Origin: Dehalococcoidia bacterium
Lineage (GTDB): Bacteria; Chloroflexota; Dehalococcoidia; GIF9; UBA5629
Length of the DNA: 64,000 nucleotides
Reading direction: 5' to 3'
Assembly (NCBI GenBank): GCA_034429715.1
Contig: DAOUFR010000058.1
Location: 7,811-71,810 of the forward strand
This document shows, in pieces, positions 6,029 through 57,309 of this stretch. The notes beneath the pieces are model-generated. The model searched no databases, was not told where the DNA came from, and saw only the letters and a program-made list of their open reading frames with translations. The translations under genes and the position numbers were made by a program. Every line of letters starts with the position of its first letter. The stretch's first letter is position 1.

Positions 6029-6044
6029 GATTATTATAATGGAT

Positions 6045-27820: not shown

Positions 27821-27842
27821 TCAAATCTCCTTCATTTGCATA

Positions 27843-28334: not shown

Positions 28335-28364
28335 ATCATTCTAGTCTGCTGAAAAACCGACTGC

Positions 28365-28393: not shown

Positions 28394-28483
28394 AAATCTG
28401 ACATATATATTCAATGTGATGGTTGCCCTTGATATATTATACTGCAAGAGGAAATACAGCCTGCATATAGCAGGAGGCCCGTT

Positions 28484-30041: not shown

Positions 30042-30108
30042 GGGTTCCTCCTTTATCTACAATTTGAACGGCCTCTTGCCCCAGGCCGGGCTGAAGACGG
30101 ATAAAAAC

Positions 30109-31134: not shown

Positions 31135-31178
31135 TAACCTCCCGGAGCCTGATAATCATAACGTAAAACCGGTTAAAA

Positions 31179-33089: not shown

Positions 33090-33154
33090 GATAGGTACCT
33101 TCGCTATACAGTTAAACTATTATATTTGTAACTAACGTGAATTACAATTCAGGC

Positions 33155-33206
33155 TTGACAATATTTTGATAGTAGAATAGAATACATTCACTGAATATAT
33201 TCTATT
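33155..33206 (+). promoter_or_regulatory. sigma70-like promoter (TTGACA-17-TAGAAT) overlapped by the inverted repeat AATAGAATA-N13-TATTCTATT (candidate TetR operator)
   Basis: TTGACA sits at 33155-33160 and TAGAAT at 33178-33183. The inverted-repeat arms sit at 33176-33184 and 33198-33206. Confidence 0.45.
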
Positions 33207-33221
33207 ATTAGGAGGCTGTTG

Positions 33222-33974: not shown

Positions 33975-34002
33975 GCTTTCAAATAGAAGGAAGAAGGTTG
34001 TG

Positions 34003-35280: not shown

Positions 35281-35303
35281 GTTATCTGAGGAGGAGAAGG
35301 AAG

Positions 35304-36860: not shown

Positions 36861-36900
36861 AAAGCAACTTATCGAGATTAGTGGTTGAAGGAGTAATAAA

Positions 36901-38052: not shown

Positions 38053-38071
38053 GTAATTACAATATATAAAT

Positions 38072-38884: not shown

Positions 38885-38989
38885 TTCCTGAGGCCATAAT
38901 ATCCAGGCCTTGTGAATCTGCCACGTGCTTTGGTGATATGGATTCCAAAAGGTGCACCATCATTTAGCTTTAATGAGGAGAACATTGTC

Positions 38990-41604: not shown

Positions 41605-42801
41605 CTATTTTTTTACAACAGTGGCCGAGCAATTACCCTGTTTGCCGGCATTGACTGTGAAACCGACTTTAGCGCCCTCGATCTGCCTCGGTCCGGAAAC
41701 GCCCCTCATCTGCCATGTAAGCTCGCATACCTGGGCCATGGCCTGGGCCGGGATAGCCTCTCCAAAAGAGGCACAGCCGCCGCTGGTATTGACCGGCATC
41801 CTGCCCCCCATCCCCGTAACGCCTTCCCGCAACAGCTTCTCAGCGTCTCCCCGCTTGCAGAGCCCGATCTCCTCGTACCAGCCCAGCTCGAAGGCAGAGC
41901 TGAGATCGTATACTTCCGCCAGGTCCAGGTCTTCGGGTCCGATACCAGCTTCTTCGTAGGCGTTGTAGGCCGCCCGGACTCCCATGCCGTTGCTGAACTC
42001 GAGATCACCCGAGTCGCTGGCAATATCCAGGCCGTAGCCTCCGCTCCTGGGATCGGGGTATTTGGGAGTGGCTATTCCCACGCTGGCCAGTCTGACAGGC
42101 TTACGGATGTGTTTTTTAGCCGCCTTCATGCTGCTGAGGACGATTGCAGCTGCGCCGTCGCTGGTCGCGCATAGCTCATACAGTCGCAGAGGATAAGTTA
42201 CCATGGGTGATTTGAGCACATCCTCGACGGTAAACGTTTTCTTGAAGCGCGCAAGGGGATTGAGCGATCCGAATTTGGCATTTTTTACCTTCACCAGGGC
42301 AAGGTCGTTTTCGGTCATTCCATAATGGTGCATCCTGTATGTAGCCATGAAAGCAAAACCCGTGGGATTGGTCAGCCCCAGTATCCTGAAACGCTGTGAA
42401 TCCAGGTCGTTCGGATCATCTTCCCGGCCAACAGTGGTGACACCGAAGAAACCGGAGGGCGAAATGCTGGCCGCCACGACCAGTACATAATCACAGAAGC
42501 CGGAGTTGATGTAGGCCTGCGCTGTCTTCAACGCGTATCCGCCTGTTGCGCAGGCGTTATACACATTGACCACCGGTATGCCGTTATTGCCTATTTTTTG
42601 CGATAATCTGCAGCCGGCTAACAGGCCATCGACACCGCTCCATGGATCCGAACCTGCCACGACAAACTGGATGTCTTTCCACTCCAGGCCGGCGTCTTTC
42701 AAAGCTTTTTGAGCCACCTCAAGATTCAGCTCGGGAACGCTCTTATCTTTTATTTTTCCCCAGGGATGCATAGCAACTCCCAGAATAGCTACTTCATTCA
42801 T
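41605..42801 (-). CDS. thiolase (SCP-x type; catalytic partner of the DUF35 protein)
   Basis: A thiolase fold is present with the active-site Cys in VYNACATGG. It lies immediately downstream of the DUF35 gene. Confidence 0.8.
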   Translation of the reverse strand: MNEVAILGVAMHPWGKIKDKSVPELNLEVAQKALKDAGLEWKDIQFVVAGSDPWSGVDGLLAGCRLSQKIGNNGIPVVNVYNACATGGYALKTAQAYINSGFCDYVLVVAASISPSGFFGVTTVGREDDPNDLDSQRFRILGLTNPTGFAFMATYRMHHYGMTENDLALVKVKNAKFGSLNPLARFKKTFTVEDVLKSPMVTYPLRLYELCATSDGAAAIVLSSMKAAKKHIRKPVRLASVGIATPKYPDPRSGGYGLDIASDSGDLEFSNGMGVRAAYNAYEEAGIGPEDLDLAEVYDLSSAFELGWYEEIGLCKRGDAEKLLREGVTGMGGRMPVNTSGGCASFGEAIPAQAMAQVCELTWQMRGVSGPRQIEGAKVGFTVNAGKQGNCSATVVKK

Positions 42802-42841: not shown

Positions 42842-43291
42842 TCATTTGTGAGCAGGCCTGAACTTCCATGCCATAACGTCGTTGCCCTGGCTGTCCTCAT
42901 ACAGCTTCTCGATTACGACGTCCATATCCATGCCGACCTCCAGGTTTTTCTCGTCATAGCCGGAGGAAATCTGGCCTGTGATGCTGATGCCTTCAGGCAG
43001 GCTGACCATCCCGACCCCGAAGGGAACAAATGGATCCGGTGCGTGGTATGGCGGGGGCGGCGAAAAATAGTTGATGGAATAGGCCTCCAGTTTGCCTTTA
43101 TTGCTGAGCATCACCGATTGCATGGTACCGTCTTTTTTGCAGTTCGGATTGCGGCATACCTGTGCCGGCGGGAAGAAATAGCCGTTGCACAAAGAGCATT
43201 TGCTGGCTATGATATGCGGCTCCCTGGGCGGCATGGTGAACCAGCCCTGGATGGCGGGAACCTGTTGTTTTTGCGCGTTTTGATCGCTCAT
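42842..43291 (-). CDS. DUF35 Zn-ribbon/OB-fold protein (BbsA-like thiolase partner)
   Basis: It carries CSLCNGYFFPPAQVCRNPNC (a rubredoxin-like Zn ribbon) followed by an OB-fold region. An AAGGAGG RBS is present. Confidence 0.75.
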   Translation of the reverse strand: MSDQNAQKQQVPAIQGWFTMPPREPHIIASKCSLCNGYFFPPAQVCRNPNCKKDGTMQSVMLSNKGKLEAYSINYFSPPPPYHAPDPFVPFGVGMVSLPEGISITGQISSGYDEKNLEVGMDMDVVIEKLYEDSQGNDVMAWKFRPAHK

Positions 43292-43327: not shown

Positions 43328-44215
43328 TTACGTTAGCTTCGTGGTATCGAAAGCAGTCTTTGCCCCATCGGGCATGTAGTCGTAGAACCCTTTGCCTGCC
43401 TTCTTGCCCAGGCGTCCGGCCTGTACCATCTTGTCGATCAGTGTAGATGTCGGAGCATACGATTCAACTCCCATAGCCTTGAACGCCTGGCCGACACGCT
43501 GATAGACGTCCAGCCCTGCGTAGTCCGCCATCTCGAACGGGCCCAGAGTCCATCCGTACCCATATTTCATACCTGCATCGACATCCTGAACCGTAGCAAT
43601 GCCCTGTTCCACCAGGTTAAGGGCCTCGCGGAAGGCCGTGCCACTGATACGGTTCATGATGAAACCGGGTATATCTTTCATGACTTTCACCGGATATTTA
43701 TTAAGCGAAAGTATGAAATCCACGCTTTTCTGGAAAACCGCTGCGGATGTTTTTTCTCCTTTGATCACTTCAACCAGCAGCATCAGAGGTACCGGACCAA
43801 AGAAGTGCAGCCCCACCATCCTCTCGGGATGCTGTGCATCCATGGCCAGCCGTGTAATACGTATGCTGGATGTGTTGCTGGCTAGAATGGTCTCCGCCGG
43901 ACAGATTCTTTCCAGCTCCTGGAAAAGTCCTTTCTTGAGTTTTTCGTCTTCATAAACCGCTTCGATGACCCACGGGCACTTTGCGGCGACGGCAAGATCT
44001 TTTACTGCGCTGATCCTCTCCTGTACGGCTTTAGCCGGATCCCTGAGCTGGCCCTTGCTCTCGAGTTTCCCGGTCGACCAGCGGATATCGGCGAGGGCTT
44101 TTTCAACAGCCTCAGCATTGGAATCATACAGGTAGACGCGGTAGCCATTCTGGGCGGCAACCTGTGCGATGCCGGTGCCCATAAAGCCGGCGCCGACGAC
44201 GAGGACGTTTTCCAT
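43328..44215 (-). CDS. 3-hydroxyacyl-CoA dehydrogenase (paralog of the 17887-18771 gene)
   Basis: VLVVGAGFMGTGIAQV is present. It is roughly 65% identical to the other Hbd by eye. Confidence 0.8.
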   Translation of the reverse strand: MENVLVVGAGFMGTGIAQVAAQNGYRVYLYDSNAEAVEKALADIRWSTGKLESKGQLRDPAKAVQERISAVKDLAVAAKCPWVIEAVYEDEKLKKGLFQELERICPAETILASNTSSIRITRLAMDAQHPERMVGLHFFGPVPLMLLVEVIKGEKTSAAVFQKSVDFILSLNKYPVKVMKDIPGFIMNRISGTAFREALNLVEQGIATVQDVDAGMKYGYGWTLGPFEMADYAGLDVYQRVGQAFKAMGVESYAPTSTLIDKMVQAGRLGKKAGKGFYDYMPDGAKTAFDTTKLT

Positions 44216-44312: not shown

Positions 44313-45608
44313 TCATTTTTCGGCCAGCAGATGCTCGTGTTTGACCTTATCCATGTCAGCAATATAGGGCCGGGAAGCCATGAAATAGCACAGTCCGCCC
44401 AAAACGCCGCCCAGGGTAGCAATTATCAGCGCGGTGCCCAGCGCCTGCGCATCCTGCCCCAGCGCATTGGAGATGGCTCCGACCAGGTAAGGGCTCCAGC
44501 CGCCGCCGAATACGTACATGAAAAAGATCATGGCGCCCCATACCAGGCCTTTCTGGGCTACCGGGGCGACATCCTGAGCCATGGCCATGATGCAGGGAAT
44601 CGCCATCACATTTAAAATGCCGTAGACAATGATGAGGACCATGCCCAGCGGCCCTTTTAACTGTAAGAACAGGGCTGCTGCAAGGAAAAAGGCGCTGAGT
44701 ATAATGGTGATGGCCGGCACATAGAGCCTGCCCCTGGGATTTTTCCTGAACCACAAATCCGCCAGGAATCCGCCCAGTGGCGAGCCGATGATGGCAGCCA
44801 GGACGATAGGAACAAGTATGCTGTTGGCGGCCTGCACATCCACTCCCCAGGCACGTCCGATAAAAGCCGGCGACCAGAAGAGAAATGACATCGACATAAC
44901 GTTGGCCAGGCCGTAGCCGACGAAGGTCCAGACCAGCGTGGGGATTTTAAAGAGACCGATTATTGAGTGGCCGAAATCCACCTTCATGCCGGGCGCCTGG
45001 TCTGCTTCCACGGTCTTGTAATCCTTCATAAAGAATGCCATCAGACCCAGGGCGATGCCCGGTATGGCGAAGATGAAGAACGGCGCCTGCCATCCGTACT
45101 GCTTGGCTACAATGCCTCCGGCGAGTGAACCCAGCGCTATTCCCAGCGGCACAGCTGCATTGAACACGCCCATGGCTATGCCGCGCGCCTTTTTCGAGTA
45201 AGCGGCGCCGATCATGGCCGAGCCGCCCGGCACAAATCCGGCTTCACCCACTCCGACAAGACTGCGGGGGACCAGGAAGCTCCAGAAATTCCAGGCAAAT
45301 CCGTTGGCGGCAGTGAACATACTCCAGAGCAGCGCCATTATGCCGACAGCCTTGCGCCTGCTCCAGCGGTCTATCAGATAGGAAATGGGAAATGAGAAGA
45401 CCGCGATGCTCAAAAGGAATACCGTCCCGAGGATACCCATTTCACTATCATTAAGCCCCAGGGCGGCTTTCATGGGCTCTACAACGGCGGCCACGACCTG
45501 CCGGTCCATGAAGTTAACCATCAGGAGGAGAGTACAGGTGATCAGTATATATAGTTTTCCCCCAGCTCCGGCCTTATATTCTTTTGGCGCACCTGTATCT
45601 GTCGACAC
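44313..45608 (-). CDS. MFS transporter (paralog of the 40244 gene)
   Basis: TM topology and MFS motifs fit. An AGGAGG RBS precedes the GTG start. Confidence 0.75.
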   Translation of the reverse strand: MSTDTGAPKEYKAGAGGKLYILITCTLLLMVNFMDRQVVAAVVEPMKAALGLNDSEMGILGTVFLLSIAVFSFPISYLIDRWSRRKAVGIMALLWSMFTAANGFAWNFWSFLVPRSLVGVGEAGFVPGGSAMIGAAYSKKARGIAMGVFNAAVPLGIALGSLAGGIVAKQYGWQAPFFIFAIPGIALGLMAFFMKDYKTVEADQAPGMKVDFGHSIIGLFKIPTLVWTFVGYGLANVMSMSFLFWSPAFIGRAWGVDVQAANSILVPIVLAAIIGSPLGGFLADLWFRKNPRGRLYVPAITIILSAFFLAAALFLQLKGPLGMVLIIVYGILNVMAIPCIMAMAQDVAPVAQKGLVWGAMIFFMYVFGGGWSPYLVGAISNALGQDAQALGTALIIATLGGVLGGLCYFMASRPYIADMDKVKHEHLLAEK

Positions 45609-45667: not shown

Positions 45668-47029
45668 TTACCAGTCCAGGCCTTTGGATCTGCGGACCTT
45701 CCTGTAATGGTCCATGGTCTGTTCGAAGGCCTCGGCCCTGGCCAGTGTGTCCTGGGGATTGAAAACACGCTTGTCGATGATGTCGCCCTCGACCCACAGG
45801 GTGGGGACGTCCAGCTTCTTGAGCAGGAAATCCTGTATCGGTCGGAGATTGGAACTGGCTGCGCGGCAGGAGATAAGAGGATGCAGGAAAAATCCGTCGG
45901 CGCGATACCCCCCGGCGTAATTCAGATAGCATGCTACGATGGGATTATTGATGCTGTTCTTCCGGGCATGCTGATGTATGTTGAATACGAAGTTACGAGA
46001 GAGGCGCGCCAGCTTCTCTACGGGATTGCTGACCCTGCTCAGGTCCGGTGGTTTGGGGGCGTGATAGCCGTAGCCTTCGAAGACGAAATTCCAGCCCCTC
46101 TCGGCCAGGCTGTCGAAGAACTTGAGGCTGTGCCAGGGGGGCAACTCGGCGAAGATCAGCCGGTACCTCTCGGGATAGTTGATGGCTGCTTCTTTATTTT
46201 TAATCCTCTCCTGTACCTCGGCCAGCATGTCCTGGTACAATTTAAGAGACATCTTCATATCACCGGCGAAGAAAAGCGACGGCGGCATGCTGCTCCAGAA
46301 ATCTGTGCTGTGCATGGGCCCGGGTATGGCCTTGCGGGCCTCGCTGATCTGCCAAACGGTTTCGTGGATCTGAATGGCCAGGTCCATCAGCTCTTCGAAC
46401 CTGTTCCAGTCCATCTTCTTCTTGAAAAGTTTCTCCAGGAAGGAGATGTAATCGTTGAGCTCTTTAACCAGGAACTTCACCTGATACCCTTCGAGATCCT
46501 CCTCCGAGCCCTCGGCAGTGCCCATCACCGGCATCTCAAGGCACCATTGCGGCGCATCGAAGTACCTGGCCAGCGCCTGGAACCACTTGAAGCGCGCATC
46601 GCAGAAGATGCCCGAGCCGAGCAATAGCTGTGGTCTGGCCATTCCGCCCAGCGGGGCGTCGGGTGGAATATTGCCGTTGTTTTCCTTCATCATGCGGCAG
46701 GAGTAGCCGATAGTGGCCCTGCCGTATCCGCACATATGGTTGGGGAAGCCGTCAGAGTCCGAGGCGTCTAAGAATTGCTCGGCTGTGCCGGAGGCCGCCA
46801 GCAGCGTGGAATAATTCTCGGGATATACGATATTGAGGTCCATGGCCTTGAGAGGGATATCCCCTTCGAAGATGGTGAGCATGGACCAAACAGTAGGTCG
46901 GCCCTCTTTGCTGGCCTGCAGCGTATCGACATAGTCCTGCTGTACCAGGTTGCGCAGCGGGTACATGCTCTTCAGGCGGTTGATGGCCCTTTTCTTCTCG
47001 GTTTTAACCGTAGTTTCTGTTTCACTCAT
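45668..47029 (-). CDS. benzoyl-CoA reductase BzdO/BcrB-like (2-hydroxyacyl-CoA dehydratase family) large subunit, extra paralog
   Basis: It is about 80% identical by eye to the 52390-53751 gene across its full length. GGGAG precedes the ATG at 47029. Confidence 0.7.
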   Translation of the reverse strand: MSETETTVKTEKKRAINRLKSMYPLRNLVQQDYVDTLQASKEGRPTVWSMLTIFEGDIPLKAMDLNIVYPENYSTLLAASGTAEQFLDASDSDGFPNHMCGYGRATIGYSCRMMKENNGNIPPDAPLGGMARPQLLLGSGIFCDARFKWFQALARYFDAPQWCLEMPVMGTAEGSEEDLEGYQVKFLVKELNDYISFLEKLFKKKMDWNRFEELMDLAIQIHETVWQISEARKAIPGPMHSTDFWSSMPPSLFFAGDMKMSLKLYQDMLAEVQERIKNKEAAINYPERYRLIFAELPPWHSLKFFDSLAERGWNFVFEGYGYHAPKPPDLSRVSNPVEKLARLSRNFVFNIHQHARKNSINNPIVACYLNYAGGYRADGFFLHPLISCRAASSNLRPIQDFLLKKLDVPTLWVEGDIIDKRVFNPQDTLARAEAFEQTMDHYRKVRRSKGLDW

Positions 47030-47135
47030 AAAATACACTCCCAGTGGAGAGAAGCATTCTCCAGGCGAGAAAGCGACTACTCTCAGGACGCAGTGAATAC
47101 GAAGCGGATAAAAGGCGAAACTTCGATACCGGTTG

Positions 47136-48695
47136 CTATATTATTCTGCTGTCCTTGCCCTTCCAGTATTTTTCCTTTACCAAACGGCGTAATATCTTGC
47201 CGGTGGGAGTCATGGGCAGCTCCGTAACGAAGTCCACGGTGCGCGGACGTTTATAGCCGGCCAGCTTTCCCTTGGTGAAATCGACGATCTCTTCCTGCGT
47301 AGCGCTCATGCCGTCCTTCAGCAGGACCACCGCCTTGACCGACTCGCCCCAGAATTCATCAGGCACGCCGACGATGGCCACCTCTCTGACCGAAGGATGT
47401 GCATAAATGACGTTCTCAACTTCGGTGGGGTAGATGTTCTCGCCGCCGGAAATGATCATGTCGTTTTTGCGGTCGACCAGGTACAGGTAATTCTCCTCGT
47501 CCACGTATCCCATATCACCCACAGCACACCAGTCGCCGCGGAAGGCGGCCCTGGTGGCCTCGGGATTCTTCAAGTAGCCTTTGAAGATATTGATGCCGCG
47601 TGTATATATCTCACCTATCTCGCCGGGCTTCATCTCATTGCCGTCGGGGTCCAGTATCTTGATCTGCTTGCCGAAAACGGCCTGCCCTACCGAATTCAAC
47701 TTCCTGAGCTGGTCCTCCGGCCGCAGAGCTGTCACCACACCCGTCTCGGTGGCGCCGTAGCCCTCGTATAGTCGGCCGTTTTTGAAGAAGGACAGTATCT
47801 CTTTTTTGGTCTTGGCTGAAATTGGGGCGGATGATGAGAGTAGCGTTGTCATGCTCGAGACGTCGTACTTATTGCGCACCTCCTCGGGCAGGGCCAGGAT
47901 AATGTTGTACATGGTCGGCACCATGCTGGAGATATTGACCTTATATTTATCGATCAGCTGAAGTATCTCCTCGCCGTTGAATCCGCGCAGGTGATATATA
48001 TGGATGGTCATACCGTTGAGGAACGAGGCCATCACGTTGTTGATGGAATTTGAGTGGAAGGTGGGCATGACGATCAGGTTAACCATATAGGAGGTAACGA
48101 ATTCGATATTCATGGCTATCGCTGTTTCAACGCCCGTTTTGTGCTGGGTGATGGCGCCCTTGGGGAAGCCGGTGGTGCCTGATGTATAACCTATGCATAA
48201 AATGTCCTCGGGATCGATTTTTACATCTGGCTCTGAGATGGGGCCGTCTTTTATCAGGTCCTGATAGAGGCCGCCTGCATCGCGGAATTTCTTACTCCCC
48301 ACCACCCAGTATTTATCCGCCGGTATCTGTTTTATGTCCTTCGCCGCTGTTTCCATGACCGGTATGAATTCTTCTCCCAGTATCATGGCGCAGGCATCGG
48401 AGTTGTCGATGACGTACTTGATCTCGGGCGCCTGGAAGCGCCAGTTGACCGGCACCATGATGATACCGGATTTGGCGCAGGCCATAATCAACTCGACGAA
48501 CTGATAGCAGTTCATGAGCAGTATCCCCAGCCTGTCGCCTTTTTTTAACCCGCTGGCCAATAGATTATTGGCAATGCGGTTTACGCGGCGGTTGAGCTCC
48601 TCGTATGTGAAAGAGGCATCATTGCCGACGATGGCATTGCGTTTGGGATACTTGTTGACACTATTGAGCAGAAGTTCGCCTACTACCAGGTTCAT
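47136..48695 (-). CDS. AMP-dependent acyl-CoA synthetase/ligase
   Basis: YTSGTTGFPKG and GEIYTRG...KGY are present. An AGGAGG RBS is present. Confidence 0.8.
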   Translation of the reverse strand: MNLVVGELLLNSVNKYPKRNAIVGNDASFTYEELNRRVNRIANNLLASGLKKGDRLGILLMNCYQFVELIMACAKSGIIMVPVNWRFQAPEIKYVIDNSDACAMILGEEFIPVMETAAKDIKQIPADKYWVVGSKKFRDAGGLYQDLIKDGPISEPDVKIDPEDILCIGYTSGTTGFPKGAITQHKTGVETAIAMNIEFVTSYMVNLIVMPTFHSNSINNVMASFLNGMTIHIYHLRGFNGEEILQLIDKYKVNISSMVPTMYNIILALPEEVRNKYDVSSMTTLLSSSAPISAKTKKEILSFFKNGRLYEGYGATETGVVTALRPEDQLRKLNSVGQAVFGKQIKILDPDGNEMKPGEIGEIYTRGINIFKGYLKNPEATRAAFRGDWCAVGDMGYVDEENYLYLVDRKNDMIISGGENIYPTEVENVIYAHPSVREVAIVGVPDEFWGESVKAVVLLKDGMSATQEEIVDFTKGKLAGYKRPRTVDFVTELPMTPTGKILRRLVKEKYWKGKDSRII

Positions 48696-48763
48696 GTTTG
48701 TAATCCTCCTGAATTAATTGAATTTAATGATCGTAATCTGATCTGGATTTCGCGACGCCGCTG

Positions 48764-49327
48764 TTATTGCGGCTTTTTACTATCAGACGATTCATCAAAA
48801 TTGGAGATTATTTTTATAGCGCTCTCCGTCCACTCCAGCAAAGCTTCATACTGTGCAAGGGTCCGGTCCACAACCAGCGTCCAGTAAAGCTTATCCAGCG
48901 GGTCCGCCGAGCCCCACAGGTCGCTATTAATGGCCGGTTTCACCATCGCCTTATATTTATCGACCTCAACCCTCAGTATTTTTGAGTATTTTTTTATGTC
49001 GTTCACAATATCCTTTCTGCTGACACGACTTCCATACCATAGCTTGGTCAGGAGAGTTTCACGGGGCACGACGAATTCAGGAGGCTCCTTAAGCCATTTT
49101 TTTAATTCTTCTGTGCCTTTGTCGGTTATAGTGAAAACGTTTTTGTTGGGCAGCTTCTCCTGGTCCACTCTTTCACATTCGACCAGTCCCTCCTCGGCCA
49201 GCAGGTTCAGTTTGCGATAAATCTGGCTGAGTGAAGGGCGCAGAGGCTCGAAAAACATTTTCGACAGATCGTACCCTGTTTTAGGACCGTAACTGAGGAA
49301 TCCCAGCAAGCCGTGTTTCAACGACAT
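48764..49327 (-). CDS. PadR-family transcriptional regulator
   Basis: The N-terminal winged HTH is LLGFLSYGPKTGYDLSKMF...LVE. Confidence 0.7.
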   Translation of the reverse strand: MSLKHGLLGFLSYGPKTGYDLSKMFFEPLRPSLSQIYRKLNLLAEEGLVECERVDQEKLPNKNVFTITDKGTEELKKWLKEPPEFVVPRETLLTKLWYGSRVSRKDIVNDIKKYSKILRVEVDKYKAMVKPAINSDLWGSADPLDKLYWTLVVDRTLAQYEALLEWTESAIKIISNFDESSDSKKPQ

Positions 49328-49376
49328 ATCAATAAGCTCCTATGATAGATATTCCTATGGGCAGTACTCGCTTAAG

Positions 49377-49402
49377 CATGTATAGACCCAGGTCAATACA
49401 TG
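49377..49402. promoter_or_regulatory. inverted repeat CATGTAT-N12-ATACATG upstream of padR (candidate PadR operator)
   Basis: The arms sit at 49377-49383 and 49396-49402, about 50-75 nt upstream of the padR start codon. Confidence 0.4.
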
Positions 49403-49510
49403 CCGCCAAATAAGATAACATATGCCTGAAATGCATGTCAAACCGGATTGTAATCACGAGGACGGGGAATCAGAGAAGTTGTAAATACGGCCGTTATAAT
49501 GAATGGAAGG

Positions 49511-50293
49511 CTATGAAATGGAGCGGTCTCTGGCGATCAGTGCCGCGCCCAGGGCAGCGATGATGCGGGGGTTCTGCGGCACCAGCACTTTGAGTTTCAG
49601 CTTTTCCTCGATGCTCCGGACCAGGCCGATATCGAGCGCGCCGCCTCCGATGACAGCCACCTCCGGCCGGATGTTGACGCCGCGTGTCAGGGCGCTGACC
49701 TTATCGGCGATAGAGCGGTGGATGCCGGCCACGATATCCTCAGGTTTATCGCCCTGCGCGATACGGGTGATGACCTCGGTCTCCAGGAATACCGTGCAGG
49801 ACGTGGAGAAGCTGGACGGTTGCGTGGATTTTAAAGAGAGAGGACCCAGGTCCTCGATGTTCAGTTGCAGTATGCGCGCCACCAGCTGCAGAAGGCGGGC
49901 GCTGCCTGTGGCACAAATCTCGGAGATATTGAAGTTGATGACCTGGCCGTTTTCATCGATATCGATGAGCTGGCTTCCCTGTCCGCCGATATCCACTATT
50001 GTGCGGGCGGAAGGGAAGACAAGGTTAACTCCCCGGGCGTTGCAGACGATGACTCCGTGATAGCTGTCGGCCTCAGCGTTGCGGCCGCCGGTGCCCGTTG
50101 AGCCGCTGGCTTTGATATCCTCGGGCTTAAGGCCCGCCCTGTTTATAACCTCTTCTTTGAGCGCGGTTGCGGTAGTGGCATAGTTGTTGCCCGAAGGTAC
50201 TACGGATGCGGCTTTGATATTCCGGCTGTCGTCTATAATGACGGCCTTGCCGCCGACGGATCCGATATCGATACCGAGATAATAGGCGCTCAT
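49511..50293 (-). CDS. BCR/HgdC-type ATPase subunit (BzdP/BcrD-like, BadF/BadG/BcrA/BcrD ATPase family)
   Basis: The N-terminal actin-like fold is YLGIDIGS, and the bridging-[4Fe-4S] Cys pair lies in VIVCNARG / SEICATGSARLL. It overlaps the upstream ATPase gene by 4 nt. Confidence 0.75.
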   Translation of the reverse strand: MSAYYLGIDIGSVGGKAVIIDDSRNIKAASVVPSGNNYATTATALKEEVINRAGLKPEDIKASGSTGTGGRNAEADSYHGVIVCNARGVNLVFPSARTIVDIGGQGSQLIDIDENGQVINFNISEICATGSARLLQLVARILQLNIEDLGPLSLKSTQPSSFSTSCTVFLETEVITRIAQGDKPEDIVAGIHRSIADKVSALTRGVNIRPEVAVIGGGALDIGLVRSIEEKLKLKVLVPQNPRIIAALGAALIARDRSIS

Positions 50294-51177
50294 TTAGTCT
50301 TCTCCCCGAAATCCACACGGGCCTCGGTGAGCTTCTTTTCACGATGCGCCTGGTATTCGCCGCGCTGCACCAGTTTGAAGGCCTCGTCGCGCGCCAGTAT
50401 GGCCGCTCCCAGCGAGCCGGTGATGAGCGGCTCCTCGGGAATTAGCACGGGCACGCCCAGCACGGTCTCCATGGCTTTGACCATGCCGGCGTTCTTGGCC
50501 ACACCACCGGTGAAGACCACGGGCACTTCCACTTTGAGCTGTCGAGCCAGCTTGACCACGCGCGTGGCTATGGCTATATAGACTCCCGCCAGTATATCAG
50601 GCAGGGGTTCCCCCGTTGACAGACGTGAGATGATCTCCTGCTGGGCGAAGATGGTGCAGAGGCTGTTGATCTTGACCGGAGTATCGGTTTGAAGGGATAT
50701 TTTGCCCATCTCGTTGAGGTCCAGCCCCAGGGTCTCGGCGGCCACCTCCAGGAACCTGCCTGTGCCGGCTGCGCATTTGTCGTTGGTCAGAAAATCTACA
50801 AGGCGTCCATTTTTGATTTTGAGCACCTTGGCGTCCTGTCCCCCGATATCAATGGCCGTCCTGACATCGGGAAAAAGCGCAGCCACACCTTTAGCGTGGC
50901 AGGTCAGCTCGGTGATCTGCTTGTCGGCAAAGGGCACATTGACGCGGCCGTAGCCGGTGGAGACGATATAAGCGATATCCGCAAGCGGCAGTCCGGCTTT
51001 ATGCAGGGTATCTTCCATGACCTTGTTGGCGCGCAGGCGGTGCTGGGCGCCGGTGGGGCCGACAACATAGGCCAGCATCTTGCCTTCGGCGTCCACTATT
51101 GTTGCCTTGGACATCGTGGAGCCGATATCGATGCCGGCGAAATAAAGGCGTGAGGTCAGATCATCGATGCCGGGCAC
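50290..51177 (-). CDS. BCR/HgdC-type ATPase subunit (BzdQ/BcrA-like), distinct from the adjacent ATPase
   Basis: FAGIDIGS, ELTCHAKG and NDKCAAGTGRFLE are present. It is only about 35% identical to the neighbouring ATPase. Confidence 0.75.
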   Translation of the reverse strand: MPGIDDLTSRLYFAGIDIGSTMSKATIVDAEGKMLAYVVGPTGAQHRLRANKVMEDTLHKAGLPLADIAYIVSTGYGRVNVPFADKQITELTCHAKGVAALFPDVRTAIDIGGQDAKVLKIKNGRLVDFLTNDKCAAGTGRFLEVAAETLGLDLNEMGKISLQTDTPVKINSLCTIFAQQEIISRLSTGEPLPDILAGVYIAIATRVVKLARQLKVEVPVVFTGGVAKNAGMVKAMETVLGVPVLIPEEPLITGSLGAAILARDEAFKLVQRGEYQAHREKKLTEARVDFGEKTK

Positions 51178-51186
51178 AGTGCTACC

Positions 51187-52359
51187 TTATCCCAGCGTCT
51201 CCAGGAATGCCTCAACCCTGGTTTTGATGGGCGCCAGCGATCGTTCGCTGTAATCGTGCTCGATATAGATACTGGGAATGCCCAGCGTATCGAGATAGTG
51301 CCGCAGGTTGGGTACCTCGTAGCCATGAGTGTCGCAGTATTTGACGCTCTGCAGAATTGCGCCGTTGACTTTCCAGTCGGTGACGGCCTTCTTGATATAG
51401 TTGAACCTGCTGTCCAGGTCCCTGTCGTAGTTGCGCTCGAGCTCATGGTGCTTGGTATCGCGATAGGTGCGCGGGCACTTGAGATCGACCAGGTAGCGCT
51501 GCGCCAGGGAGTGCAGATTATAAGGTGCTTTAACGTCTGCCCAGAACGCTCTGGTGCCGACGCAGGTGTCATCGACTACGACGCTGGCATCTGCGCTCTC
51601 TATGAGCTCATAAAGCGACGTATTGTCGAAAACCGGTCCCCATACCAGCAGGCGAGCCTTCTTTTTAGCAGGCTTTATTCTGCGTTCCCTGACCTCTTTG
51701 ATGACGTCTTCCAGGAGTTCGTTGCCTTCATCCACGGGCAGGCTGAAAAGAGCCACCAGTACTTCTATATTCTCCACGGATGTCAGAAGGGGCGGATCCG
51801 ACTTACGCAGATCGTAGAGCTCCCTCACCAGCTTGCGCTGTTTATTATGAAGCTCACAGGCTTTCTTCAGCTTGTCGTCGGTCAGCTTCTCCCCGGCCAG
51901 TTCTTCCAAGTGTCGTTTGAAGGAGTTGATCTGCCCTTCGAAGTAGTCGACGGCAGGTTCGTGGTCGGTATGGGGCACATCTATGAGATGGGAGAATGGT
52001 GCATCCTTGACATAATCACGCCAGGATATGACCAGGGTCATTCCGATATCGCAGGTATGCGCTCCTACGATGCCGTCCAGGAAGTTGAATTTGCCTTTGA
52101 GTCCCAGGTCGATAATGCTGCGCAGGAAGGGGCAGACCACCGTGGTGGATACCTGGTCGGCGGCGGTGATCGGCTCGCTCATATCGCCGAAGACGCGGAA
52201 GGGCACCATGCCCAGCGCGCTGATGACCTCGACAGGCGGGTAGAGGCAGATATAGCCGATGATCTTCTTGCCGGCCTTGCGCAGCTCGCGCACGCGCCGC
52301 CCCCTGTCCGCATAGATCTCATGTGCTCTTGAAAGACCCTTGGTTGTAGCTATTACCAT
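51187..52359 (-). CDS. BzdN/BcrC-like subunit (2-hydroxyacyl-CoA dehydratase/benzoyl-CoA reductase family)
   Basis: Cys motifs CPFLRS, HTCD, DDTCVG and YCDTHG are typical of the HgdB/BcrC family. A GGGAG RBS is present. Confidence 0.7.
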   Translation of the reverse strand: MVIATTKGLSRAHEIYADRGRRVRELRKAGKKIIGYICLYPPVEVISALGMVPFRVFGDMSEPITAADQVSTTVVCPFLRSIIDLGLKGKFNFLDGIVGAHTCDIGMTLVISWRDYVKDAPFSHLIDVPHTDHEPAVDYFEGQINSFKRHLEELAGEKLTDDKLKKACELHNKQRKLVRELYDLRKSDPPLLTSVENIEVLVALFSLPVDEGNELLEDVIKEVRERRIKPAKKKARLLVWGPVFDNTSLYELIESADASVVVDDTCVGTRAFWADVKAPYNLHSLAQRYLVDLKCPRTYRDTKHHELERNYDRDLDSRFNYIKKAVTDWKVNGAILQSVKYCDTHGYEVPNLRHYLDTLGIPSIYIEHDYSERSLAPIKTRVEAFLETLG

Positions 52360-52389
52360 CTCAATCTCCCGGTTTTTATTATTCTTGGC

Positions 52390-53751
52390 TTACCAGTCCA
52401 GTCCCTTGGATTTCCTGACCGTCCTGTAGTGGTTCATGGTCTGCTCGAAGGCCTCGGCCTTGGCCAGCACTTCCTGAGGATTGAAGACGCGTTTGTCGAT
52501 GATGTCGCCCTCCACCCACAGGCTGGGTATATCCAGCTTGTCCTGCTCGAAGTGCTGTATCGTCCTGAGGCTGCAGCTGGCTGCGCGGCAGGAGATAAGC
52601 GGATGCATGAAGAAGCCGTCGGCCTTAAAGCCACGGGCGATCTTGAGGTAGGTTTCGACCACGGGATTGGAGATGCCGTCCTTCTTTGCATCGGGGAAGA
52701 TGTTGAACCAGAAATTGCGCGAGAAGCGCGCCAGCTTCTCGCAGGGATCGCTGACCTTGCTCAGGTCGAGCGGCCTGGTGTTATGGTAGCCGAAGCTCTC
52801 GAAGACGAAATTCCAGCCTTTCTCGGCCAGATTGTCAAAGAACTTGAGGCTGTGCCAGGGCGGGAGCTCGGCGAAGATCAGCCGGTATCTTTCCGGGAAG
52901 TTGATGCCCGATTCCCTGTTCTTGACACGCTCCTGCACCTCGGCCAGCATATCCTGGTACAGCTTGAGCGATACCTTCATATCGCCTGCAAAAAAGAGGG
53001 CGGGCGGCATGCTGCTCCAGAAGTCCGTGCTGTGCATGGGCCCGGGTATGGCCTTGCGGGCCTCGCCGATCTGCCAGGTGGTCTCGTGTATTCTGGTAGC
53101 CAGGTCGATCAGCTCCTCCAGCTTGGCCCAGTCCATCTTTTTCTTCAGCAGCTTTTCCAGGAATTCTATAAAGTCCTTAATTTCCCTGGTGAGAAATTTA
53201 ACCTGATAATCTTCCAGGTCCGCTTCAGTGCCTTCGAAAGTGGCCATCATGGGCATCTCGAGGCACCATTCAGGCGCATCGAAATATCGGGCCAGCGCCT
53301 GGAACCATTTGAAGCGGGCGTCGCAGATAATGCCCGAACCGAGCAGCAGCGCCGGTTTGGCCATGCCGCCCAGCGGCGCATCGGGCGGTATCTTGCCGTT
53401 GTTTTCTTTCATCATGCGATAGGAGTAGCCGATGGTGCTCCTGCCGTATCCGCACATATGGGTGGGGAAGCCGTCGGAGTCCGACGCGTCCAGGAACGGC
53501 TCGGCTGCGCCCGAGGCCGCCAGAAGCGTGGCGTAGTTCTCGGGATAAACGATGTTAAGCCCCATGGCCTTGAGCGGGAGGTCGCCCTCCCAGTAATTGA
53601 GCATGGACCATACGGTCGGCTTGCCCTCGTTGCTGGCCTGCAGAGTGTTGACATAGTCCTGCTGTACCAGGTTGCGCAGCGGATACATGCTTTTCAGCCG
53701 GTTAATGGCTCTCTTCTTCTCGGTCTTGGCGGGAGTTGCGGTTTCACTCAT
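52390..53751 (-). CDS. BzdO/BcrB-like large subunit (2-hydroxyacyl-CoA dehydratase/benzoyl-CoA reductase family)
   Basis: HgdA/BcrB-like motifs are present (MCGYGRSTIGY, GSGIICDARF). It is the first gene of a four-gene O-N-Q-P operon. Confidence 0.7.
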   Translation of the reverse strand: MSETATPAKTEKKRAINRLKSMYPLRNLVQQDYVNTLQASNEGKPTVWSMLNYWEGDLPLKAMGLNIVYPENYATLLAASGAAEPFLDASDSDGFPTHMCGYGRSTIGYSYRMMKENNGKIPPDAPLGGMAKPALLLGSGIICDARFKWFQALARYFDAPEWCLEMPMMATFEGTEADLEDYQVKFLTREIKDFIEFLEKLLKKKMDWAKLEELIDLATRIHETTWQIGEARKAIPGPMHSTDFWSSMPPALFFAGDMKVSLKLYQDMLAEVQERVKNRESGINFPERYRLIFAELPPWHSLKFFDNLAEKGWNFVFESFGYHNTRPLDLSKVSDPCEKLARFSRNFWFNIFPDAKKDGISNPVVETYLKIARGFKADGFFMHPLISCRAASCSLRTIQHFEQDKLDIPSLWVEGDIIDKRVFNPQEVLAKAEAFEQTMNHYRTVRKSKGLDW

Positions 53752-53869: not shown

Positions 53870-55387
53870 TCACTTTATCTGGCCGTCGTTCAGCATCTTG
53901 ACCAGCTCTTTTTTCAGTATCTTTCCCATGGGGTTGCGCGGCACCTGTTGCAGTATATAGACGTGACGCGGCACCTTGAAGCGCGCCAGCTTGTCGCCTA
54001 AAAAGTCGGTGATATCCTTCTCGGTTAATGTCGTACCAGGCTTGGGCACCACGATGGCTACGGGTACCTCGCCCAGGCGGACGTCCCGCTGAGGCACCAG
54101 CGCGGCGTCGGCCACCGACGGATGTTTGTACATTATCTCTTCAACCTCGCGCGGGAATACCTTCTCGCCTCCGACGTTGATCAGCTCCTTCTTGCGGTCG
54201 ACCATGAAGAAGTAGCCGTCCTTATCGTAATACCCCATGTCTCCGGTATGCAGCCATCCCCCGCGCAGCGTCTCGGCAGTCTCTTTGGGCTTTTTATAAT
54301 AGCCTTTCATCACAATCGGGCCCTGGATGACCAACTCGCCCACCTCCCCTGCTGCCAGAAGCTTGCCCGATTCGTCCATGACGCCCACTTTCACGCCGGG
54401 ATAGGCCAACCCGACGCTGCCCTGTTTGTAGGCGAGGCCTGAGCGCTGCATGGTGGCCGAGGCCGAGCATTCGGTCAGTCCCCAGGCCTCGAGTATCACG
54501 ACGTTAAGTGCGGCAGAGGAGTCCTTCATGAGCTGCGCGGGCATGGCCGAAGCCCCGGAGATGCCTATTCGCAGTGAGGAGAGGTCGTACTTGCCGCGGT
54601 CCGGATGGTTGATCAACATGAAATACATGGCAACCACCATGGGCAGGAAGGTGACCTTGTGTTTCTCGATCTGTTCGAAGATCTCGACGGGATTAAAGGG
54701 GTCCAGCAGCACGAACGATGAGCCGGTGACCAGCGAACAGAGTATCACGGTGATACCGAAGCCGTGGAATGCCGGGACCACCATAAGCGCGCGGTCGTTG
54801 TCCCCCAGTTTGAGCAGGCTGACGATGATGTCGGCATGGAAAAACAGGTTGGCGTGCGTCAGCATGGTACCCTTGGGTTCGCCGGTGGTGCCCGATGTGT
54901 AGAGGATCTCGACCACGTCTTTTTCCTTACACAGGGCCTTAAAAGGAGTCGACGGCGCCTCCGCCTCGAGCTTTGAGAACTCCAGACCTTCCCGGTAGGC
55001 GCCGTTTACGATCAGGTGTTTGAAGAGGGGTGGTTTATTTGTGATTTTGCTGAAGTGCTCGGCAAAGGCCGGATTTGCCACCAGGGCGACCGAGTCGCTG
55101 TCCCGCAGCAGGTATTCCAGCTCCCGCTCCTTGTAAAAAATATTGACCGGCACGGCCACCGCTCCCAGGTAAGCACAGGCGAAATAGGTCACGATGAACT
55201 CGGGACAGTTATTGAGCATGATGGCGACTTTGTCATCAGGTTTGACGCCGAGCTTTTTGAGGGCATGTGCGAACTTTTGCGCCCTGGTCAGAAGCTGGCT
55301 GTAGGTTACAGGCTGGTCCTTGTAAATTAGTGCAGGTTTGTCTCCAATCTTGGAGGCCCTGGCCTCCAGCATACCGGGCAGATGCAT
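53870..55387 (-). CDS. AMP-dependent acyl-CoA synthetase/ligase
   Basis: YTSGTTGEPKG and GELVIQGP...KGY are present. A GAGGAGG RBS is present. Confidence 0.8.
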   Translation of the reverse strand: MHLPGMLEARASKIGDKPALIYKDQPVTYSQLLTRAQKFAHALKKLGVKPDDKVAIMLNNCPEFIVTYFACAYLGAVAVPVNIFYKERELEYLLRDSDSVALVANPAFAEHFSKITNKPPLFKHLIVNGAYREGLEFSKLEAEAPSTPFKALCKEKDVVEILYTSGTTGEPKGTMLTHANLFFHADIIVSLLKLGDNDRALMVVPAFHGFGITVILCSLVTGSSFVLLDPFNPVEIFEQIEKHKVTFLPMVVAMYFMLINHPDRGKYDLSSLRIGISGASAMPAQLMKDSSAALNVVILEAWGLTECSASATMQRSGLAYKQGSVGLAYPGVKVGVMDESGKLLAAGEVGELVIQGPIVMKGYYKKPKETAETLRGGWLHTGDMGYYDKDGYFFMVDRKKELINVGGEKVFPREVEEIMYKHPSVADAALVPQRDVRLGEVPVAIVVPKPGTTLTEKDITDFLGDKLARFKVPRHVYILQQVPRNPMGKILKKELVKMLNDGQIK

Positions 55388-55710: not shown

Positions 55711-57309
55711 ATGAACCTGGCCAACCTTGTAGTTGAAGGGATCAGGAAATTCGGGGAATACCAGTGCTGTTATTTCGAGGGTAAATGGTATACCAACGTT
55801 GAGTTGGATGAGATGTCCAGCCGCCTGGGCAACGCGCTCAAATCGATCGGCATCAGCAAGGGAGACCGCGTGGTCACGCAGCTGCCGAACTGCCCTGAGA
55901 TCGGCTGTGCGTTCAATGCCGCCTATAAAATCGGCGCCATTGCCGTGCCTATGAATCCCATATTGCGGCCGGACCAGATATCCCATATTTACAGGGATTG
56001 CGGCGCCGGGGTGACCATAACGACTTCCGATTACCTGCCCTGGATCAGGGAGGCGCAGAAAAACGCGCCGGGCCTCAAGAACATAGTCCTGGTTGATAAG
56101 GACGATGAGCCGGGGGCACTCTCCTTGAGAAAGCTAATGGAGAGCTCCAGCAATGAATTGAAGGTGGAGGAAATGGATTCCGACGACCTGGCGGCGCTGA
56201 TCTATACATCCGGCACTACCGGAAATCCAAAGGGTGTAATGCATACCCACTTCTCGCTGTGGATCAATGCGGTTTGCTTCGCTGATTTTACAGCCATGTG
56301 TTCCCCCACTACGCTGACCAATGCACACCGGGATCTTAACAAGCTGACTTATCAGATCGAGGAGACCCAACAGGTAGTTACGGGACACGACCGGCATGTA
56401 TTATTTCTGGCAGTACTGCCGCTGTCTCATTCGTACGGCCTGTCTTTTATGAATTTCGGCAACCTGGTCGGATCCAGATATGTGGTGATGAAGTGGTGGA
56501 ATCCGGCGGCGGCGCTCAATTTCATTCAGGAGATGCGCATCGAGTACCTTGCTATGGTTCCGACCATGTACGTTCACATGCTGGACCAACCCGACTTCGA
56601 TAAGTATGACCTCAGTTCCCTTAAATACTGCAACTCGGGGGCTGCGGCGCTCGATCCGGGCGTCGCATCCAGGTGGAAGGACAAGACCGGCGTCCACATA
56701 CACGAGGGCTGGGGACTGACGGAGTCCGGCGCTCTGACAGCGGGCAATCCCACCACGCGCCCTCCCAAGATCGGCTCCATCGGCGTCAACATGCTAAAGT
56801 GCAACACAATGAAAATATTCGACGACCAGGACTGCGAGCTACCGACTGAGGGAAGGGGGGAGCTGGTTATCAGAGGACCCGCTGTAATGAAAGGTTATTG
56901 GAATATGCCGGAAGAGACGGCTGAAACGCTTAAAAACGGCTGGCTGCATACCGGTGACATCGGTTACATGGACAGAGATGGCTACTTTTATATCACTGAT
57001 AGAAAGAAGGATATAATCATCCGCGGAGGAGAAAACGTTTCGCCCAGGGAAGTCGAAGAAGTTGTCGGCCGGCATCCCAAGGTGCTTGAAGCGGGCTGTG
57101 TGGGGATCAAAGACAGGGTATACGGGGAGGAGATAAAGGCGTTCGTCGTGCTCAGAGAGGGCGAGCAGTGCAGCGAGGCTGAGATCATCGAGCACTGCAA
57201 ACGATATCTGCCCTCGTTTAAAACGCCCGGCAAGGTGCAGTTTATAAACGCGCTGCCCAAGAATATCCTGGGCAAGGTATTGCGGGCTGACCTGCGAAAG
57301 CTGAGGTAG
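55711..57309 (+). CDS. AMP-dependent acyl-CoA synthetase/ligase
   Basis: YTSGTTGNPKG and GELVIRGP...KGY are present. An AGGAGG RBS is present. Confidence 0.8.
   Translation: MNLANLVVEGIRKFGEYQCCYFEGKWYTNVELDEMSSRLGNALKSIGISKGDRVVTQLPNCPEIGCAFNAAYKIGAIAVPMNPILRPDQISHIYRDCGAGVTITTSDYLPWIREAQKNAPGLKNIVLVDKDDEPGALSLRKLMESSSNELKVEEMDSDDLAALIYTSGTTGNPKGVMHTHFSLWINAVCFADFTAMCSPTTLTNAHRDLNKLTYQIEETQQVVTGHDRHVLFLAVLPLSHSYGLSFMNFGNLVGSRYVVMKWWNPAAALNFIQEMRIEYLAMVPTMYVHMLDQPDFDKYDLSSLKYCNSGAAALDPGVASRWKDKTGVHIHEGWGLTESGALTAGNPTTRPPKIGSIGVNMLKCNTMKIFDDQDCELPTEGRGELVIRGPAVMKGYWNMPEETAETLKNGWLHTGDIGYMDRDGYFYITDRKKDIIIRGGENVSPREVEEVVGRHPKVLEAGCVGIKDRVYGEEIKAFVVLREGEQCSEAEIIEHCKRYLPSFKTPGKVQFINALPKNILGKVLRADLRKLR

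Follow-up and report, generated by a model that had tools for sequence, protein, structure and literature searches.

Which radical enzyme does this locus encode, and why is its catalytic subunit encoded twice? We analyzed a 64,000-nucleotide stretch of a Dehalococcoidia bacterium (assembly GCA_034429715.1, contig DAOUFR010000058.1, positions 7,811–71,810; hereafter the window). A first-pass annotation had described a gene cluster in it as a four-subunit ATP-dependent enzyme resembling class I benzoyl-coenzyme A (CoA) reductases (BCRs), with a large subunit present in two copies. The cluster combines two PF06050 subunits with PF01869 ATPases, and carries three cluster cysteines in the catalytic subunit (alpha) and two in each ATPase monomer; these are the domains and cluster ligands of the radical enzyme family that comprises the BCRs and the 2-hydroxyacyl-CoA dehydratases (HADs). 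We tentatively read the product as a reductase that, driven by ATP, transfers two electrons to CoA thioesters different from benzoyl-CoA, and the two catalytic subunits, alpha1 and alpha2, as alternatives to each other; we place the probability of this reading slightly short of one half. It is favored because the ATPase is heterodimeric with one degenerate site, the partner subunit (beta) is of the double-cubane type, and alpha has a three-Cys site.

A four-subunit operon with two different ATPases

The genes of the operon and of the second catalytic subunit are as follows.

53870..55387, minus strand: CoA ligase A (ligA), AMP-binding and AMP-binding_C domains; first gene of the ligA-alpha1-beta-Q-P operon
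52390..53751, minus strand: alpha1, 453 aa, PF06050 (HGD-D); O/B/HadB-type catalytic subunit with a predicted three-Cys [4Fe-4S] site
51187..52359, minus strand: beta, 390 aa, PF06050; BzdN-like, with a six-Cys double-cubane [8Fe-9S] signature
50290..51177, minus strand: first ATPase (Q), 295 aa, PF01869 (BcrAD_BadFG); ASKHA type with the Cys pair of the bridging cluster
49511..50293, minus strand: second ATPase (P), 260 aa, PF01869; divergent, with a degenerate nucleotide site
49376..49441, minus strand: promoter-like site (49441-49412) and inverted repeat (49376-49403) upstream of the PadR gene; candidate operator
48764..49327, minus strand: PadR-family regulator, PF03551 and Vir_act_alpha_C; first gene of the alpha2 unit
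47136..48695, minus strand: CoA ligase B (ligB), AMP-binding domain; partner ligase of alpha2
45668..47029, minus strand: alpha2, 453 aa from the ATG at 47029, PF06050; without a beta of its own

All the open reading frames (ORFs) named in the first-pass annotation were found uninterrupted on the minus strand, and a tblastn search of the window gave exactly two alpha genes, one beta gene, and one gene for each ATPase. The earlier description of an O-N-Q-P-type operon with a separate, intact O copy was thereby confirmed, as were the PadR regulator and the CoA ligase between them, both by their domains. The PF06050 scores of alpha1, alpha2, and beta were 147–283 bits, and the ATPases matched PF01869 at 212 and 160 bits. 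The alpha1-beta and beta-ATPase gaps were 30 and 9 nt, respectively, and the Q and P genes overlapped by 4 nt. These short distances indicate that alpha1-beta-Q-P is a tight operon, in which P is translationally coupled to Q. Rfam and tRNA scans gave no matches.

The proteins were compared with the bzd-type BCR (BzdNOPQ), the 3-methylbenzoyl-CoA reductase MbdONQP of Thauera chlorobenzoica (9G87, 9GAI), the (R)-2-hydroxyisocaproyl-CoA dehydratase HadBC-HadI (3O3M, 4EHT), and DCCP/DCCP-R of Carboxydothermus hydrogenoformans (6ENO, 7YYL). The reference trees contained PDB chains only, with sequences rebuilt from HMMER alignments and checked against published BzdO residue numbers, because searches of plasmid collections for Bcr, Bzd, and Bad returned only uncharacterized systems annotated as "dehydratase".

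The top NCBIfam models for beta were double_cubane (203 bits, below its cutoff of 350) and BzdN (185 bits), and the top PDB match was BzdN (8s02_B, 174 bits vs 135 bits for HadC). Cys38, Cys76, Cys103, Cys266, Cys295, and Cys342 of beta aligned with BzdN Cys36, Cys73, Cys100, Cys263, Cys293, and Cys327 and with the cysteines of DCCP; of the 69 family members, all kept five of these cysteines and 56 kept Cys103. Two of the six positions are occupied by Pro and Ala in HadC, and MbdN lacks three of the cysteines. Arg55, Arg270, and His345 of beta likewise aligned with BzdN Arg53, Arg267, and His330. In the reference tree, beta paired with BzdN in 94 of 100 bootstraps and with HadC in none. In BzdN, the six cysteines are the ligands of an [8Fe-9S] double cubane, a cluster described as able to store two or more electrons and as lost from the HADs (Fuchs et al. 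2025, PMC11971306). On this alignment, beta carries the ligand signature of a bzd-type [8Fe-9S] double cubane.

In regard to alpha, Cys100, Cys143, and Cys388 aligned with BzdO Cys95, Cys128, and Cys380, and Glu71 with BzdO Glu65; all four residues were kept in 85/85 family members. In BzdO, Glu65 and the catalytic His131 hold the Fe-bound water; at the His131 position, alpha has Arg146 in 84/85 members. The equivalents of BzdO Trp46 and Tyr97 were present and those of Tyr298, Gln274, and Glu381 were replaced, and Asp144 and Arg389 were invariant in the family. Alpha had the three-Cys set only, without the six-Cys motif, and fell with the catalytic O/B/HadB-type subunits in 100/100 bootstraps at 22–24% identity to HadB, MbdO, and BzdO (24% to BzdO and 22% to MbdO). 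An exact look-up of the alpha1 sequence in an assembly index gave no match.

The two ATPases were 36% identical to each other. Q scored 271 bits against CoA_E_activ and 183 bits against BzdQ, and its identities to HadI and MbdQ were 47% and 43%, respectively; those of P to HadI and MbdP were 39% and 28%. The Q motifs DIGST, DIGGQD, and NDKCAAGTGRF and the pair Cys135/Cys174 were kept in 59/59 members, and the Cys pair of P in 57/57, which bears out the earlier claim of two distinct ATPases that each have the Cys pair of the bridging cluster. In P, Ser or Gly stood in place of the Asp of GGQD in 56 of the 57 sequences tallied, and the Thr of GST was lost. This Asp is also missing in MbdP, a subunit of a genuine class I BCR, and is kept in HadI, HgdC, MbdQ, and DCCP-R; the loss in both P and MbdP suggests an asymmetric ATPase design that is either shared or convergent.

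The Q and P lineages were each monophyletic in a neighbor-joining tree (100/100 bootstraps). Relatives were encoded at 286 loci when one genome per GTDB species was scanned, and the six-frame ORFs of 84 loci were compared with the proteins of the window (loci are designated by L numbers). In this comparison, Q orthologs were 55–62% and P orthologs 39–51% identical to those of the window, and the order alpha-beta-Q-P was kept in about 60 loci, down to approximately 51% alpha identity. The monophyly and the kept order indicate that Q and P have long been maintained as a pair and did not arise by a recent tandem duplication, the outcome named in the first-pass annotation as one that would speak against its view. 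The closest relatives were Dehalococcoidia or Chloroflexota metagenome-assembled genomes (MAGs) from sediments, peat, lakes, and groundwater, and L001 (GCA_016930155.1) had the same gene order as the window, alpha2 included. The enzyme is a member of a large, mainly Dehalococcoidia, uncharacterized clade of the BCR/HAD family. Characterized HADs have one homodimeric activator gene, a layout that differs from the two ATPase genes present throughout this Dehalococcoidia family.

The set shares with the bzd-type BCR the three-Cys catalytic subunit, the six-Cys partner, and two different ASKHA ATPases with Cys pairs. It differs in gene order (alpha-beta-Q-P vs N-O-P-Q), in having a second alpha gene, in lacking ferredoxin and downstream pathway genes, and in its host, which belongs to a lineage of strict anaerobes. 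MbdONQP also has a heterodimeric ATPase, but its N subunit does not keep the six cysteines found in beta, and the identities are low (22% for alpha, 25% for beta, and 28% for P). DCCP shares the six cysteines with beta, but is a homodimer (PMC7317905) in which each subunit bears the cluster, and its reductase is likewise a homodimer, whereas a three-Cys alpha and two ATPases are encoded here. Judged from these signatures, the enzyme has the architecture of a bzd-type class I BCR and not that of a 2-hydroxyacyl-CoA dehydratase.

The second catalytic subunit and its own unit

The mechanical ORF of alpha2 opens at a GTG at 47038; counted from the ATG at 47029, the protein has 453 aa. Alpha1 and alpha2 were 79% identical over 453 aa without gaps, close to the 80% estimated before. 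The ratio of nonsynonymous to synonymous substitution rates (dN/dS) was 0.05–0.09 for alpha2 against its orthologs (six other assemblies, five usable comparisons) and 0.02–0.06 for alpha1, and the dS between the two was 0.98. The alpha copies showed no sign of gene conversion, and in the tree alpha1 and the alpha of L015 grouped together, with alpha2 branching outside them. The low dN/dS, the lack of gene conversion, and the outside branching indicate that alpha2 is an old and functional paralog; the extra copy is intact and not the pseudogene that the first-pass annotation had thought conceivable.

Differences between alpha1 and alpha2 included N52T, Y53I, W54F, I142F, and S319G. Positions 52–54 align with BzdO Ser44, Ala45, and Trp46, of which Ser44 and Trp46 contact the substrate; I142F adjoins a cluster cysteine, and S319G affects an otherwise invariant Ser. 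Co-located alpha paralogs varied at the shared positions 52, 53, 142, 168, 317, 320, 393, and 394.

The alpha2 unit runs PadR, ligB, alpha2, major facilitator superfamily (MFS) transporter a, 3-hydroxyacyl-CoA dehydrogenase, DUF35 protein, thiolase, and MFS transporter b. A strong promoter-like site (TTGACA-18-TATCTT with TG, 10/12 matches) and an inverted repeat with 13-nt arms (GCATGTATAGACC/GGTCAATACATGC), unique in the window, lie upstream of PadR, which gives the unit a predicted promoter separate from that of the operon. The region upstream of PadR was conserved in four other loci (L001, L002, L008, and L026); these had a degenerate version of the repeat, and the exact operator pattern was not found in the other loci.

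PadR occurred with ligB and alpha2 in L001, L002, L003, L008, and L026, and MFS transporter a followed alpha2 in all alpha2 loci. Wherever a locus was long enough to tell, ligA traveled with alpha1 (as in L001, L006, L007, L008, L027, and L036) and ligB with alpha2. Among the genomes sampled, alpha2 always co-occurred with ligA-alpha1-beta-Q-P, on the same contig where contigs were long enough. An excess of alpha genes was also found elsewhere: L004 encodes a TRAP transporter, a family III CoA-transferase, and then alpha, alpha, beta, and alpha (three alpha to one beta), L070 encodes alpha-beta-alpha, and L086 (10001-11362) encodes an orphan alpha, 76% identical to alpha1, with no adjacent beta or ATPases. 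The idea of a swappable substrate-binding subunit, put forward in the first-pass annotation, gains comparative support from the PadR unit with its own ligase and transporter and from the alpha excess elsewhere, but not from the pocket comparison described below.

The orphan alpha of L086 is flanked by genes for TetR, MFS, a CoA ligase, NuoE/F-like proteins, and two molybdenum enzymes of the xanthine dehydrogenase family with Fer2_2 and flavin adenine dinucleotide (FAD) subunits, which resemble 4-hydroxybenzoyl-CoA reductase.

Ligases, neighboring genes, and electron source

LigA scored 515 bits against PRK06187, and its best PDB matches were feruloyl-CoA synthetase (8wev, 287 bits) and 4-coumarate-CoA ligase. 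The best PDB matches of ligB were FadD13 (284 bits) and feruloyl-CoA synthetase (276 bits). Benzoate-CoA ligase scored approximately 170–180 bits against both ligases, which were 33% identical to each other. The remaining genes of the alpha2 unit, and those that adjoin it in related loci, are as follows.

44313..45608, minus strand: MFS transporter a, organic-acid type, MFS_1; weak matches to the anion:cation and aromatic-acid symporter subfamilies
43328..44215, minus strand: 3-hydroxyacyl-CoA dehydrogenase, 3HCDH_N and 3HCDH domains
42842..43291, minus strand: DUF35/ChsH2-type OB-fold thiolase partner, PF01796 and PF12172; weak BbsA-like match
41605..42801, minus strand: SCP-x or lipid-transfer type thiolase, PRK06059 480 bits (above cutoff); BbsB-like 170 bits
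40244..41554, minus strand: MFS transporter b, MFS_1 domain
31179-32429, minus strand: HemN-like radical SAM protein, PRK08629 412 bits vs cutoff 355
30109-31134, minus strand: 341-aa hypothetical protein; weak tocopherol-cyclase match
29169-30041, minus strand: enoyl-CoA hydratase, matches PRK08260

MFS transporter b also followed the thiolase in L002, L018, and L028. In the window, the radical SAM, 341-aa, and hydratase genes (29169-32429) are parted from the rest of the cluster by a segment of low G+C content (32481-40177; 0.44–0.47 vs about 0.55 in the flanks) that encodes TetR, a short-chain dehydrogenase/reductase (SDR), a thiolase-like protein, a CoA ligase, an acyl-CoA dehydrogenase, an enoyl-CoA hydratase, and a family III CoA-transferase. 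The radical SAM, 341-aa, and hydratase genes come straight after MFS transporter b in L002 and L028, so the segment looks like a lineage-specific insertion, and its beta-oxidation set is unrelated to the conserved cluster. The sole family III CoA-transferase of the window (38912-40177) sits in this insertion, whereas the conserved cluster uses AMP-forming ligases. The hydratases matched PRK08260 and generic types, not Dch or Oah. In the closest clade, with 79–89% identity (L009-L024 and L031), the radical SAM protein and/or the 341-aa protein was encoded directly after the P ATPase; the latter belongs to a family of approximately 4000 unnamed proteins that is not linked to BCRs elsewhere (Desulfatibacillum, Syntrophaceae).

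Clustering of the neighbors found nothing beyond the four core genes in more than 16 of 80 loci, so the substrate could not be inferred in this manner. Between the P gene and PadR, L002 (1904-7368) encodes a corrinoid protein (MtgC/MtbC/MtaC-like), two MtaA/CmuA-type methyltransferases, an MFS transporter, and a 374-aa protein without a family match; this insert is possibly an O-demethylase set for methoxy-aromatics tied to the cluster. In the distant clade with approximately 52% identity (L041-L084), the operon was often near an acyl-CoA dehydrogenase, an enoyl-CoA hydratase, and a biotin carboxylase/carboxyltransferase pair, a neighbor set that resembles leucine/isovalerate catabolism. L085, of the 52% clade, has the order alpha-beta-Q-P-MaoC-PTA-acetate kinase-thiolase-SDR. 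Substrates, possibly aliphatic ones among them, may differ between clades.

A second low-G+C segment (1386-9206; 0.43–0.48) encodes an FrhB-like Fe-S protein, IorA-like and IorB-like subunits of 2-oxoacid:ferredoxin oxidoreductase, TetR, and two HpaB-family proteins (4-hydroxyphenylacetate hydroxylase/4-hydroxybutyryl-CoA dehydratase family), and holds the only Fer4 motifs in the window. The first-pass annotation had considered the FrhB-IorAB genes as a nearby source of electrons. We set this candidate aside; the genes lie at 1386-5075, approximately 44 kb from the cluster, in a segment of different G+C content.

At the enoyl-CoA hydratase end, the catabolic cluster abuts a signaling cluster (21396-29167) of four FHA proteins (21396-23147, 23177-24724, 24892-26004, and 27843-28334), a Ser/Thr protein kinase (26001-27230), and a response-regulator-type protein with FHA and winged-helix domains (28484-29167); the same FHA-Trans_reg_C gene flanks the cluster of L002. 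Five AMP-forming CoA ligases are encoded within approximately 27 kb (35277-36860, 47136-48695, 53870-55387, 55711-57309, and 60510-62183). Near them are an M20 amidohydrolase, a phosphotriesterase-family protein, a DUF3795 protein, and a CARDB protein, which co-occur in related loci. This ligase-rich stretch suggests a multi-substrate organic-acid catabolic island.

The plasmid systems annotated as "dehydratase" include L088 (8923-13114, Azoarcus sp. KH32C plasmid pAZKH), which encodes an activase, a 685-aa fusion of a BzdQ-like ATPase with a double-cubane beta-like protein, and a 414-aa HGD-D protein, and so has another four-module layout; genes for an AraC regulator and a ferredoxin adjoin it. 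Similar systems were found on plasmids of Sphingopyxis, Rhodococcus, and Rhizobium.

Reaction mechanism, alternative readings, and significance

From the signatures described above, we infer the following route for the electrons. Ferredoxin would reduce the [4Fe-4S] cluster that bridges the Q/P heterodimer, in which the Q site is canonical and the P site degenerate. ATP hydrolysis would then push the electron to the [8Fe-9S] double cubane of beta, acting as an electron store. Alpha would receive electrons from beta at its three-Cys [4Fe-4S] cluster and there use two of them to reduce a CoA thioester. Benzoyl-CoA itself would not be a substrate; the adjacent ligases, of the feruloyl/coumarate type, would probably supply acyl-CoAs that are substituted aromatics or derive from phenylpropanoids, and the products would go on to the hydratase, the 3-hydroxyacyl-CoA dehydrogenase, and the thiolase-DUF35 pair. 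Either alpha1 or alpha2 would pair with the single beta/Q/P module, with alpha2 expressed from the PadR-controlled unit together with its ligase and transporter.

Several results weigh against a reductase of this kind, and some of them speak for the serious though rather unlikely alternative of a HAD-like radical dehydratase, which would convert 2-hydroxyacyl-CoAs (e.g., aryl-lactyl-CoAs made by the ligases) to enoyl-CoAs with ATP in a catalytic role only and pass them to the hydratase, dehydrogenase, and thiolase. HadB led the lists for alpha among both the curated models (112 bits) and the PDB chains (96 bits vs 51–56 bits for BCR subunits), and HadI scored highest for both ATPases. The best scores with curated BCR models were 71 (BzdO), 185 (BzdN), 183 (BzdQ), and 134 bits (BcrA) against cutoffs of 380–578, and the curated HAD equivalog models were also far below theirs. 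Arg146, at the position of the catalytic His131 of BzdO, likewise counts against the favored reading. The placement of alpha among HadB, BzdO, and MbdO had a support of 3/100 or less, and an AlphaFold2 (AF2) model of alpha1 (predicted local distance difference test score 82) gave template modeling (TM) scores of 0.77–0.80 against HadB, MbdO, and BzdO (0.77 for HadB, which also shares the Glu of YPEN and the three-Cys catalytic cluster), a comparison that does not separate them. Q paired with MbdQ in 15 and P with MbdP in 5 of 100 bootstraps, so that orthology had no support; of the subunit placements called for in the first-pass annotation, that of beta with BzdN was supported in these trees of PDB chains, and those of Q, of P, and of alpha among HadB, BzdO, and MbdO were not. 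The class I BCR reading of that annotation, which took two different ATPase subunits as the hallmark, is supported by the four-subunit layout and the BzdN-like beta, but not by alpha, which does not group with BzdO or MbdO, nor by the curated BCR scores. Alongside its hydratase, dehydrogenase, and thiolase genes, the conserved cluster has none for an acyl-CoA dehydrogenase, which also fits a dehydratase followed by beta-oxidation, and it contains no Fer4 motif. The window also lacks ferredoxin, 2-oxoglutarate:ferredoxin oxidoreductase, and dch/had/oah genes; the absence of the first two next to the operon had been noted before. The hydrolysis of two ATP per turnover is, as a general point, costly for strict anaerobes (PMC11971306), and a catalytic use of ATP would suit energy-limited Dehalococcoidia. 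The MaoC-PTA-acetate kinase-thiolase-SDR genes of L085 and the CoA-transferase directly upstream in L004 likewise agree with a dehydratase, which remains a serious contender because of the Had-best scores, the missing acyl-CoA dehydrogenase, the L085 context, and the ATP cost. Against it stand the two ATPase lineages kept apart across the whole family, as opposed to the single activator of the HADs (HadI is a homodimer from one gene), and a beta that has all six double-cubane cysteines and groups with BzdN, never with HadC, which holds a [4Fe-5S] cluster. Activation by ATP-dependent ligases also differs from the CoA transferase of the Had operon, and the cluster has no 2-hydroxyacid dehydrogenase.

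The grouping of beta with BzdN would also suit a genuine, divergent bzd-type enzyme that dearomatizes benzoyl-CoA, as is assumed in Dehalococcoidia metagenomics; close homologs bear the automatic JGI name "benzoyl-CoA reductase subunit B", class I BCRs have been reported in Dehalococcoidia (PMC5736913), and bcr genes were enriched on lignin (PMC10116835). We consider this very improbable. The BzdO, BcrB, BzdN, and BzdQ equivalog scores were 56–185 bits vs cutoffs of 380–487, and alpha, at its low identity to BzdO, has Arg146 in place of His131 (in 84/85 family members) and does not conserve Tyr298 and Gln274; MbdO also lacks the His131 equivalent and has Phe there. The ligases are nearer to feruloyl-CoA and coumarate-CoA ligases than to benzoate-CoA ligase, genes of the downstream pathway and for ferredoxin are missing, and the presence of two diverged alphas with a ligase apiece speaks for other substrates. 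In regard to the exchange of subunits, the pairing of alpha2 with the beta of the window is putative, and alpha2 might instead use a beta encoded elsewhere, act alone as a homodimer, or be a redundant isoenzyme under other regulation. The MAG that contains L001 and L025 (JAFGHL01) does have a second complete operon (L015), and DCCP is a precedent for a homodimer (PMC7317905). The pocket frameworks of alpha1 and alpha2 are largely identical: when the paralog differences were mapped on the active site, as had been proposed, they were not enriched in the a priori pocket set (4 of 94, P = 0.94), nor were the alpha2-specific changes at conserved sites (P = 0.42), so any shift in specificity is subtle. 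However, alpha2 lacks the six-Cys motif needed to stand in for beta, it constantly co-occurs with ligA-alpha1-beta-Q-P in the sampled genomes, it has a distinct ligase and transporter of its own, and its residues aligned with the substrate-contacting Ser44 and Trp46 of BzdO differ from those of alpha1. We therefore regard a non-exchangeable alpha2 as improbable, and retain the reductase with alternative catalytic subunits as our tentative reading.

Class I BCR genes have repeatedly been reported from Dehalococcoidia genomes (PMC5736913, PMC10570749, PMC10116835), so the base annotation is not new, contrary to what the first-pass annotation implied (PMC5736913 and PMC10116835 already contain it). 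The combination of a BzdN-like, putatively double-cubane subunit with a catalytic subunit bearing invariant Asp144/Arg146/Arg389 appears to be new, as does the recurrent excess of catalytic-subunit genes over partner and ATPase genes; here, the surplus gene comes with a ligase, a transporter, and a regulator of its own. The modular extra subunit is without earlier description, though the enzyme type has been annotated in such genomes.

Non-dehalogenating Dehalococcoidia are among the most abundant bacteria of anoxic sediments, peat, and aquifers. Benzoyl-CoA reduction is routinely credited to them in metagenomic papers on the strength of these genes, which form a distinct clade with a catalytic subunit unlike any characterized one; carbon-cycle inferences from KEGG "bcr" annotations therefore need biochemical backing. 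A bolder view, which we rate as unlikely, is that of a modular reductase in which Q/P and the double-cubane beta serve interchangeable alphas, each cassette with its ligase, transporter, and regulator, for radical chemistry on lignin- or humic-derived acyl-CoAs, with Asp144/Arg146/Arg389 as a new active-site variant distinct from BzdO and HadB. If the spare alpha does share beta, Q, and P, this would be the first combinatorial exchange of substrate subunits in the BCR/HAD family and a compact design for engineered enzymatic Birch-type reductions. Such a modular reductase, if real, would open very-low-potential dearomatization or dehydroxylation to the strictly anaerobic Dehalococcoidia.

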